Positions 37,723-38,978 of a DNA stretch of 64,000 bases are shown here, piece by piece. The DNA is from a virus (Duplodnaviria; Caudoviricetes), in the IMG/VR virus record IMGVR_UViG_3300028549_000365, positions 96,001-160,000 of that record; one strand, written 5' to 3'. Positions within the stretch are counted from its first letter, which is position 1. Every line of letters starts with the position of its first letter. The position numbers were made by a program, and so were the translations under genes. The notes beneath the pieces were generated by a model, which made no database searches, was not told the origin of the DNA, and worked only from the letters and a program-made list of their open reading frames with translations.

Positions 37723-37872
37723 ATGAAAGTAAGAATGTCATTAGTAGCTGCGTCAGCTATTGTTAAATTAAATACTAGAATAAAAGACTATTCTTTAAAA
37801 GCACAAGTTCTACAATCTAGAACACCAGGTAAATCAATACCATTAAGTACTACTGTTAAACAGGATAACTAA
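37723..37872 (+). CDS. 49-aa small ORF overlapping a tRNA-like element
   Basis: AAAGGA SD; MKVRMSLVAASAIVKLNTRIKDYSLKAQVLQSRTPGKSIPLSTTVKQDN. Confidence 0.45.
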   Translation: MKVRMSLVAASAIVKLNTRIKDYSLKAQVLQSRTPGKSIPLSTTVKQDN

Positions 37873-37971
37873 CTGCACAAACTTTGTTAGACTATACCGC
37901 AACGACACAGGTTCAGCGCATTCTAGTCTAACATCAACATAATGTTATGGGTTCAACTCCCAAGTAGTACA
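37847..37971 (+). ncRNA. tRNA-like RNA with a long stem replacing the anticodon arm
   Basis: GTACTAC/GTAGTAC-A acceptor, GTTA/TAAC D-stem, TGGG-TTCAACT-CCCA T-arm, inner TGTTAGACTA/TAGTCTAACA 10-bp stem. Confidence 0.55.
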
Positions 37972-38040
37972 CTAGACAGTTTCTCCAATTACAGTTTAGA
38001 TTCCAGCGTAGAAGTTTTTAACACTTCTTCTACGCTGTTA

Positions 38041-38117
38041 GGGTTGTTAGCTCAGCTGGTAGAGCACTCGGCTCATAACCGAGCGGTCGATAGGTTCAAA
38101 TCCTACACAACCCACCA
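38041..38117 (+). tRNA. tRNA-Met/Ile2 (CAT)
   Basis: Cloverleaf with CTCGG-CTCATAA-CCGAG anticodon arm and encoded CCA; one extra A in the T-stem. Confidence 0.9.
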
Positions 38118-38127
38118 ACAATATTAT

Positions 38128-38227
38128 GTATAGCCTTTCATGTGGCGAGAAGTGCTGGTTACGACCGGCAGGGCATGGTAACTTATGTTACACATATTCC
38201 TTATGGGTTCAACCCCCATGCTATACA
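38128..38227 (+). ncRNA. tRNA-like RNA, even-numbered anticodon loop (UUACGA) and ~30-nt variable arm
   Basis: GTATAGC/GCTATAC-A acceptor, TGCTGG-TTACGA-CCGGCA arm, ATGGG-TTCAACC-CCCAT T-arm. Confidence 0.6.
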
Positions 38228-38364
38228 CAGCTATGAATATTATATAGTATAATATGATGTCTATAAACTAGATCTTAAATATTGGTACTGTAAAATCTAC
38301 TTTAATATAAGATTTATTATGATTATAGATTAGTCATTTGTAACTATAAATATTCATACTTTAT

Positions 38365-38563
38365 GTAACTATAGCTCAGTCTGGTAGAGCGCGGGGATAT
38401 CAGTGTGTTCTAATTTGTGTATGAGATACACAGCACACTCCGAAGTCATTGGTTCGAATCCAAAGCTTAGTCTGGTAGAGCGCGGGGATATCAGTGTGTT
38501 CCAAAAGTATTTTTACTTGACATACACACTCCGAGGTCATTGGTTCAAATCCAATTAGTTACA
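38365..38563 (+). ncRNA. tandem double tRNA-like RNA: two D/anticodon/T modules inside one acceptor stem
   Basis: 91-nt direct repeat (38373-38463, 38464-38554) enclosed by GTAACTA/TAGTTAC-A; each module has a 41-nt anticodon loop. Confidence 0.75.
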
Positions 38564-38583
38564 CCCTTACGTTTATCGTTTGA

Positions 38584-38655
38584 GTACACTTAGTTCAGTA
38601 GGATAGAATCTGCCTCAAAAGGCAGGGGTCGCTGGTTCGAGTCCAGCAGTGTACA
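38584..38655 (+). tRNA. atypical tRNA (6-nt loop UCAAAA, or 8-nt CUCAAAAG; Leu-CAA-like loop on a short-variable-arm body)
   Basis: GTACACT/AGTGTAC-A acceptor, GTTC/GAAT D-stem, CTGCC/GGCAG stem, GCTGG-TTCGAGT-CCAGC T-arm; no CCA. Confidence 0.65.
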
Positions 38656-38871
38656 CATTATGTTTCCTGTAACTTTATGTTCTAGATGATCGTTTTCTAA
38701 CGGTAGTTTCTTTCTGTGTTATTGGAGTTTACATTGAAGAATAATATATAGTAAGATGGAAGAGTAGCTATATATTATATTCCTTTTATATTGACTTTAC
38801 AAAAAAGATATGGTGTATTTATATACTGTTATCACTGTACGTAGTCTGACGGTGATCTTCCGCTTAAATAT

Positions 38872-38978
38872 GTACTTGTAACTCAGAGGTAGAGAACACT
38901 CTAGATTAAACCTAGCACGCGGTACTAGTTAGAATCATTATTAGGGTGAAGTCGTTGGTTCGATTCCAACCAAGTATA
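38872..38978 (+). ncRNA. tRNA-like RNA with a 42-nt anticodon loop
   Basis: GTACTTG/CAAGTAT-A acceptor, CTC/GAG D-stem, CACTC/GGGTG anticodon stem, GTTGG-TTCGATT-CCAAC T-arm. Confidence 0.7.

Follow-up and report, generated by a model that had tools for sequence, protein, structure and literature searches.

A family of five transfer RNA (tRNA)-shaped elements, none of which has a usable anticodon loop, lies behind the gene for the phage nuclear shell protein chimallin in the 64,000-nucleotide (nt) stretch of viral DNA analysed here (the window; bases 96001-160000 of the 222-kb IMG/VR contig IMGVR_UViG_3300028549_000365, with a CheckV completeness of 83% and about 31% G+C). We favour the reading, at a probability of little more than one half (about 0.52), that these elements, denoted E1 to E5, are tRNA-derived non-decoding RNAs which are matured like tRNAs and act through the tRNA body. 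An initial annotation, made from the letters alone, had placed tRNA-shaped elements at 37847, 38128, 38365, 38584 and 38872, and all five are confirmed on the plus strand by direct reading and hand parsing of the sequence:

37847-37971, plus strand: E1, tRNA-like; minimum free energy (MFE) of the fold -31.2 kcal/mol, z -3.9
38128-38227, plus strand: E2, tRNA-like, by parsing and fold; perfect T arm
38365-38563, plus strand: E3, one acceptor stem around two full modules, by reading, fold and alignment
38374-38464, plus strand: E3a, a 91-nt module of E3 with its variable core at 38411-38433
38465-38555, plus strand: E3b, a 91-nt module of E3 with its variable core at 38502-38524
38584-38655, plus strand: E4, a 72-nt tRNA body; Rfam 46.6 bits, ARAGORN 'tRNA-???(aa)', fold z -4.6
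38872-38978, plus strand: E5, tRNA-like; Rfam 39.7 bits

The acceptor stem pairs in seven of seven positions in each element, G1.U72 in E5 included (E1 GUACUAC/GUAGUAC, E2 GUAUAGC/GCUAUAC, E3 GUAACUA/UAGUUAC, E4 GUACACU/AGUGUAC, E5 GUACUUG/CAAGUAU), and is always followed by A73 and C74. The letters after these are unlike (ACUA, ACAG, ACCC, ACAU and ACGU from E1 to E5, read from A73), therefore none of the elements encodes CCA. The common end that had been reported is thus present in all five, which start with GUA, finish with UA(C/U) and then A-C, and share an A3-U70 pair. With E3 counted as two modules, a T arm of 5 base pairs (bp) with a UUC(G/A)A loop is found in six of six modules, as is a GG in the D loop, and 110 of 113 stem positions are paired. 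The weak points are the D stems of E1, which has only three A-U pairs, and of E5, which has one mismatch; damage is confined to the anticodon or variable region across the family. Thermodynamic folds recover the acceptor, the T arm and the extended middle arms.

The Rfam tRNA model (RF00005; gathering threshold 29 bits) scores E3b at 31.4 and E3a at 22.7 bits in addition to E4 and E5, the values for E5 and both E3 halves coming from a more permissive run, and leaves E1 and E2 unmatched. ARAGORN and Rfam directly find three tRNA genes in the cluster (37622-37699, 38041-38117 and 38584-38656, the last at E4). When the complete 222-kb genome was scanned strictly on its two strands, for a T arm of the form GG-TTCRANN-CC together with acceptor pairing of 7/7 to a segment 62-230 nt upstream, matches were confined to this cluster, compared with 0-1 in each of 30 shuffled genomes (about 0.07 per genome). 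The initial observation is confirmed and goes far beyond what chance would give. Pieces of the cluster also turn up in wastewater metagenomes from other studies, at full or 97-99% identity.

The departure from an ordinary tRNA lies in the anticodon region. A usable loop (7 nt, U33 and a plausible anticodon) occurs in none of the five, nor does a 5-bp anticodon stem with a 7-nt loop, U33 and a purine at position 37, and the elements are non-decoding as encoded, in agreement with the initial annotation. The sizes given there for this region also stand: 41, 41 and 42 nt in E3a, E3b and E5, 6 nt in E2 and E4, and a long stem in E1. E1 (T arm AUGGG-UUCAACU-CCCAA) is without an anticodon arm and has instead a small hairpin and a 9-bp stem (GUUAGACUA/UAGUCUAAC) topped by 29 nt. 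The E2 arm, UGCUGG-UUACGA-CCGGCA, has 6 bp and a 6-nt loop, which the MFE fold turns into a 7-bp stem with a UACG tetraloop, and its extra arm is 32 nt long; a wastewater variant (38155 C>T) changes a C-G pair of E2 to U.G, so that pairing is kept. In E4, the arm CUGCC-UCAAAA-GGCAG likewise has a 6-nt loop and is closed at MFE with a CAAA tetraloop (CUGCCU-CAAA-AGGCAG). The CACUC/GGGUG anticodon stem of E5 holds 42 nt, and this insert lengthens the stem (7 bp, a 5-nt bulge, GAUU/AAUC, a 4x4 internal loop and CUAG/CUAG). The end of a 49-codon open reading frame (ORF) overlaps the first 26 nt of E1; this ORF is doubtful, because in a wastewater relative 37703 is joined to 37819 and most of it is gone.

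E3 is the most elaborate member. Each of its modules consists of a D arm, an anticodon stem with a 41-nt insert, and a T arm, and the two align without gaps. The scaffold differs in only 4 of 68 columns (94% identical), all four changes being structure-neutral (a D-stem C-G to U.G, a variable-loop purine, R57 and the last T-stem pair), whereas 17 of the 23 core columns differ and 6 agree (Fisher p 4e-10 against the scaffold). Each 23-nt core folds as its own small hairpin. Uniform neutral divergence cannot give such a contrast, and core replacement or scaffold homogenisation is therefore needed. This bears on the explanation that the cluster consists of inactivated, functionless tRNA genes in decay, i.e. 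decoders of A/U-rich codons (Phe, Lys and Ile types, among which GUA/UAC-A ends are frequent) which have been hit by indels, hairpin insertion and unequal recombination, though not yet deleted. Such decay, which we regard as unlikely while taking it seriously, cannot, if uniform and neutral, leave two unlike cores of equal length in a nearly constant scaffold. In the source sample, Logan unitigs break exactly at the 33-nt repeat of E3, and a 118-nt unitig spans from the first module to the second, hence the duplication is present in the reads. A second copy of GTAACTATA, which corresponds to the 5' acceptor strand of E3 with positions 8-9, stands 25 nt upstream of it at 38340-38348.

The strongest pattern across the family concerns its ends. 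In pairwise comparison of the elements, the outer three acceptor pairs are identical in 56 of 60 cases (93%), the sole change being C72 to U in E5, with pairing kept, whereas the inner four are identical in 14 of 80 (17.5%), which is no better than random, and are all Watson-Crick. Beyond the ends, the five are about as different from one another as unrelated tRNAs. The ends are thus held by something to which the remainder of the stem is not subject. An invariant end over a randomised inner stem is not what decay would be expected to produce, and this part of the argument for selection made in the initial annotation stands; its other part, covariation of the inner pairs, is weakened, as these differences may predate the remodelling of the anticodon arms.

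A pattern scan of the 2.9 million viral contigs of IMG/VR returned 73 tRNA-sized genes with the same ends. As this type of end is so rare, five in one phage are exceptional. The 73 genes are mostly normal decoders, among them Lys(UUU) (19), Met/Ile(CAU) (14), Phe(GAA) (13) and Ile(UAU) (10), a spectrum which fits the decay of A/U-rich-codon decoders. The E3 scaffold is 78-82% identical to the tRNA-Phe genes of this set, also in line with decay, and E4 is 84% identical to its best match, a tRNA-Lys, which suggests that the elements descend from ordinary decoders. An origin of E5 from tRNA-Ile(GAU) was considered and is not borne out by score, as its best matches are a mixture of Phe, Lys and Ile.

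Several further genes with this end were seen in IMG/VR. Tandem tRNA-Ile(UAU) genes with GUA/UAC-A ends, spaced 260-400 nt apart, occur in three copies in one contig (L048) and two in another (L051), and look like local tRNA gene amplification. In unrelated tRNA-rich phages, there are GUA/UAC-A-C bodies without an anticodon arm (L061, about 1113-1175, 63 nt; L057, about 2610-2677, 68 nt) and one with a 7-bp stem and a UUAA tetraloop (L028, about 5192-5266). Four further contigs have 8-nt loops called 'ccta'.

One candidate for the origin of the fixed end is recognition by a processing, charging or binding factor common to the family. Overlap with a promoter is another. TAT precedes E2, E3 and E5, giving TATG with the G as nucleotide 1, and the chance of this before three of five elements is below 1 in 1000 by base composition. 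The late promoter of phiKZ has the form TATG with the G as start site, and downstream sequence also matters (PMC4666361). TATGTA is, however, not enriched in the non-coding DNA of this genome (46 seen, 41.9 expected), therefore promoter overlap stays a lead. Upstream of genes, neither TATGTA nor other k-mers are enriched, with the exception of the ribosome-binding site. Three intergenic palindromes, AACTACATA...TATGTAGTT, were also noted at about 51112-51175 and 73445-73500 of the window and at about 31600 of the genome (64400 letters before the window start); each has TATG on both strands, and bidirectional promoters or terminators are candidates for their role.

On the favoured reading, the 7-bp acceptor, the elbow of D and T loops (G18G19, TPsiC) and the discriminator A73 would be kept for the maturation machinery and for tRNA-binding proteins, with the anticodon arm sealed (E2 and E4), drawn out as a long hairpin (E3a, E3b and E5) or replaced (E1). 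The elements would be transcribed by phage RNA polymerase, perhaps from the TATG of phiKZ late type before E2, E3 and E5, released by host RNase P and 3' trimming, and given CCA by the host enzyme, and would accumulate as stable tRNA-shaped RNAs. The invariant GUA/UAC-A-C end would be a recognition or initiation element common to all five. As for their use, we tentatively propose that they occupy a protein which binds the tRNA body (a nuclease of the host that cuts anticodon arms, for instance, or some other defence or toxin directed at tRNA) and present it with no loop that could be cleaved or decoded; this specific role is a good deal less secure than the non-decoding character itself. Binding of EF-Tu or RNase P and the release of cargo hairpins, both put forward in the initial annotation, are further candidate roles. 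Phage tRNA genes are known to counter the tRNA-cutting defences PARIS, retron/PtuAB, OLD, Schlafen and Septu (PMC11464382, PMC12445682, PMC13056530, PMC13096335).

The enlarged arms of E3 and E5 may in addition display an exchangeable hairpin. A full display system, with a constant tRNA body, a fixed end read by a single dedicated factor or as a late promoter, and exchangeable hairpin cassettes in place of the anticodon loop, is a long shot. E3 would then be two-headed, with its 23-nt cores swapped in an unchanged scaffold, and the RNAs could act on host RNA-binding defence proteins as programmable decoys or adaptors, or serve as sponges, in which case an exposed AUAUCA bulge (Ile codon AUC) might bind the anticodon loop of a specific tRNA.

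The neighbourhood of the elements and its counterparts in related phages also have to be considered. The cluster (37622-38978) contains two CCA-encoding tRNAs besides the five elements, and the ends of both differ from the GUA type:

35173-37041, plus strand: chimallin, phage nuclear shell protein (phrog_4795, E 1.7e-47; PF25677 on all homologues)
37622-37699, plus strand: E0, a Val-like tRNA that encodes CCA and has UUACCA as its 6-nt loop, found by Rfam and called 'tRNA-???' by ARAGORN; outside the GUA family
38041-38117, plus strand: tRNA of canonical form that encodes its CCA, anticodon CAU (Met or Ile2); 62.1 bits with Rfam, Met(cat) with ARAGORN
39004-39037, plus strand: terminator-like hairpin of 10 bp with a T run, 26 nt after E5

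Chimallin ends about 800 nt upstream of E1 on the same strand as the five elements, which places the family next to the PF25677 gene as had been stated. Its nearest homologues are 54% identical and those of cultured chimalliviruses at most 27%, hence the phage belongs to an uncultured clade. The public sequencing run that best matches this DNA is a microbial-mat metagenome, and no RNA run is listed among those that contain the stretch. In BLAST searches, the matches of the CAU tRNA carry Met, Ile or Lys labels in other phages. An 11-bp hairpin (CAGCGUAGAAG / CUUCUACGCUG) without a T run lies at 38004-38037, stops 3 nt before the 5' end of this tRNA, and may be a processing or termination signal. 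The hairpin at 39004-39037 probably marks the end of the RNA-gene cluster.

Ten contigs with chimallins of 45-54% identity were fetched for comparison. Chimallin runs directly into the polymerase gene in most of them, and three have RNA genes in between. One (L014) carries a normal CAU tRNA and a normal tRNA-Val(UAC) at 12622-12697 with the 7-nt loop UUUACCC. In another (L012), a CAU tRNA with a long variable arm stands behind chimallin, and the Val-like gene at 12664-12737 combines the 6-nt loop UCACCC with U56 and a mismatch at 1-72; the Val triplet (UAC or CAC) after U is kept in these two forms and in E0. The same contig has, upstream of chimallin at 8607-8679, a tRNA body in which a 7-bp stem capped by a GCAA tetraloop forms the anticodon arm, and a third (L008) has at 12341-12435 a 95-nt Ser-like body that lacks CCA and has a UUGAGA loop or UGAG tetraloop. 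Anticodon loops that are sealed or shortened recur in the clade.

A search for homologues had been proposed as a check on the family, and it found no orthologues of E1-E5 in the ten chimallin-bearing relatives, IMG/VR or the JGI metagenome contigs. Exact E3 and E2 patterns had no match in the latter two collections, and BLAST against 50,697 phage records matched only the CAU tRNA. Chimallin peptides and a profile of 27 chimallin sequences retrieved only 3 distant loci from IMG/VR, and the intergenic DNA of the cluster cannot be aligned with that of the relatives.

A number of these observations weigh against a functional family, and most are shared with the case for decay. The lesions are heterogeneous, as from random damage, and detection favours copies whose acceptor and T arms survived. 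As the elements resemble different tRNA types, the differences in their inner pairs are possibly older than the remodelling. The normal tRNA-Val of L014 and the 6-nt loop of E0 mean that decoders here can simply lose a loop base, and the L012 form is multiply damaged. The contigs of the ten relatives contain no orthologue and no element of GUA type at all. The unitig which bridges the E3 modules has a depth of 6.5, compared with 12.4 and 13.3 in its flanks, so E3 is possibly polymorphic and a single-module allele may coexist in the source sample. Given the stray copy of GTAACTATA, an acceptor fragment at 38340, E3 looks like a recombination product. Just past the terminator, at 39054-39127, there is a weak tRNA-like match (Rfam 21 bits, E 0.27), which may be a decayed tRNA copy. 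No partner protein adjoining the cluster was found, complements of the inserts in the phage genome reach only 11-14 nt, as by chance, and the lack of TATGTA enrichment described above counts here as well. On the other side, all but three of the 113 stem positions are paired and the elbow letters are intact, the inserts lengthen the anticodon stem as hairpins, and the phage genome is otherwise densely coding. Together with the invariant ends and the contrast between core and scaffold in E3, these points argue against decay.

The initial annotation had also raised the possibility of spliced, intron-containing precursors; E3, E5 and perhaps E1 would be the ones which splicing turns into working decoders. 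The undetermined and intron calls that it expected from ARAGORN were indeed obtained: besides the 'tRNA-???' for E4, the intron mode reads E3 as one tRNA with a 109-125-nt 'intron' and E5 as Ile(UAU) with a 35-nt intron, the latter at a non-canonical position. With the E3 loop read as A-U-AUC-A/A, positions 37 and 38 would flank the insert, and there is a precedent in the tRNA introns of Lak phages, one of which possibly encodes a tRNA (PMC6784885). Group I introns are moreover active elsewhere in this genome, one of them in the window:

52479-52870, minus strand: group I intron (Rfam RF00028, 72 bits)

The same model has no match in 37400-39300 at E<=10, the inserts match no self-cleaving ribozyme or other Rfam family at that threshold, and at 34-42 nt they fall well below the size of group I or II introns. 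Nor do the folds contain a bulge-helix-bulge motif (3-nt bulges with a 4-bp helix between): in E5 the 4-bp helix lies between a 5-nt bulge and a 4x4 internal loop, and E3 has an asymmetric loop of 6 nt/1 nt. All searches for missing genes cover the 83%-complete record, in which no RtcB, RNA ligase (Rnl1 or Rnl2) or splicing endonuclease was detected with PF01974, PF01139 and PF09414; PF09511 is uninformative, as its control was silent. The loops left after removal of the inserts are implausible, with an AUC anticodon in E3, whose A34 is unused in bacteria, and in E5 either GAU with A33 or UAU with U37. The 6-nt loops of E2 and E4 would also stay unexplained, and we consider splicing very unlikely.

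The position of the cluster brings in a further explanation, in which the elements are cut sites for RNase P or RNase Z that set the ends of neighbouring transcripts (the chimallin mRNA at its 3' end, for example), the RNAs so released being inert. The 2.3 kb that contain the cluster, from chimallin to the next same-strand genes, are poor in ORFs and rank second in size among the ORF-free regions of this densely coding genome; a split RNA polymerase beta gene begins beyond them at 41006. The tRNA-like t-elements of plant mitochondria shape mRNA ends in this way (PMC1920247), and it is only the top half of the tRNA, as required by RNase P, that is conserved in E1-E5. Punctuation does not, however, need five copies with no coding sequence between them, most relatives pass from chimallin to the RNA polymerase gene without such an element, and neither the enlarged arms nor the invariant end would be accounted for. 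Such a role alone seems scarcely probable.

RNAs of this general kind have been described in other phages, and the suggestion that E1-E5 form a previously undescribed class has to be withdrawn. The T5 record (NC_005859) annotates three such RNAs within the tRNA cluster, of which RNA1 and RNA2 are entered as 'tRNA-like stable RNA with unknown functions', whereas the label of RNA3 is 'putative tRNA-like RNA'. In the folds of RNA1 (144 nt) and RNA2 (125 nt), strongly enlarged middle arms accompany an acceptor and a T arm with GGUUC, the architecture of E1, E3 and E5, and RNA3 (73 nt) has the size of a tRNA; like our elements, they are found among phage tRNA genes. T5 belongs to an unrelated phage family, however, and its RNAs have no evident sequence similarity to E1-E5, no end in common and no known double-module form; they are annotated as stable, whereas E1-E5 are predictions only. 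T4 makes RNAC and RNAD (its species 1 and 2 RNAs), which have had no known role after decades (PMC3014915) and are expressed late (PMC9697503). They resemble our elements in being small non-coding RNAs from a phage tRNA region, and T4 is not nucleus-forming.

The tRNAs of Lak megaphages contain 'enigmatic introns', one possibly encoding a tRNA (Devoto et al. 2019, PMC6784885). By description they resemble our elements in being over-long tRNA genes with inserts in the anticodon region, and the tRNA-encoding insert recalls E3; Lak inserts are present or absent between close genomes. They differ in that a recognisable anticodon is left after removal of the insert, which is the case in none of E1-E5. 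Irregular, charged, non-translating tRNAs have also been reported from soil metatranscriptomes (PMC5389517). The YrlA RNA, partner of the Ro protein Rsr, is comparable in having a tRNA-like module within a non-decoding RNA, and Ro is encoded by some jumbo phages (PMC7824862). In YrlA, however, the RNA ends exit the arm equivalent to the anticodon stem, and here no Y RNA was matched with Rfam and no Ro gene (TROVE, PF05731) was found in the phage record, which also yielded no reverse transcriptase, PTH2, or CCA-adding enzyme/poly(A) polymerase family gene. Transfer-messenger RNA (tmRNA) has G3.U70 and a tag frame, unlike the A3-U70 of all five elements, and ARAGORN found no tmRNA. The canonical tRNA of RF00005 shares the acceptor, D and T arms, the elbow letters and the discriminator, though by score E3b, E4 and E5 lie above the threshold, E3a below it, and E1 and E2 are unmatched; it differs from E1-E5 in its 7-nt anticodon loop, and none of the five encodes CCA.

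To our knowledge, about fifty years have passed without a function being assigned to the tRNA-like stable RNAs of T5 and T4. The class of phage tRNA-like stable RNAs is not new; what is new here is that the end is fixed, that one member has two modules whose cores are swapped, and that the family occurs in a phage which forms a nucleus. With five non-decoders in such a phage, a constant end amid divergence and the two-module form, E1-E5 are a clean test case of whether RNAs of this type are decoys, scaffolds or junk.

Some minor features of the region and genome were also noted. Between chimallin and the first tRNA gene (37042-37620) there are 580 nt without an ORF which are relatively G+C-rich, have no Rfam match and cannot be aligned with the matching regions of the relatives; this could be a structured 3' untranslated region or an RNA gene. 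The downstream ORFs of 165, 227 and 100 amino acids match nothing in Pfam, PHROG or the atlas and lack a counterpart in L012. In one relative (L021), a gene for IS605 OrfB/TnpB (Cas12f-like) lies directly 3' of chimallin at 7100-8269, and both group I introns and HNH/NUMOD endonuclease genes occur in the polymerase region of relatives. Past the end of the window, at 216487-222081 of the genome and thus at the end of the contig, there is a 5.6-kb gap in the ORF map, which is a crude one (ATG start, at least 80 codons). The gap holds repeat units, with e.g. GCTATATA(T/C)GCTATGAATA present several times, and may be a repetitive gene that was missed by the simple ORF map.

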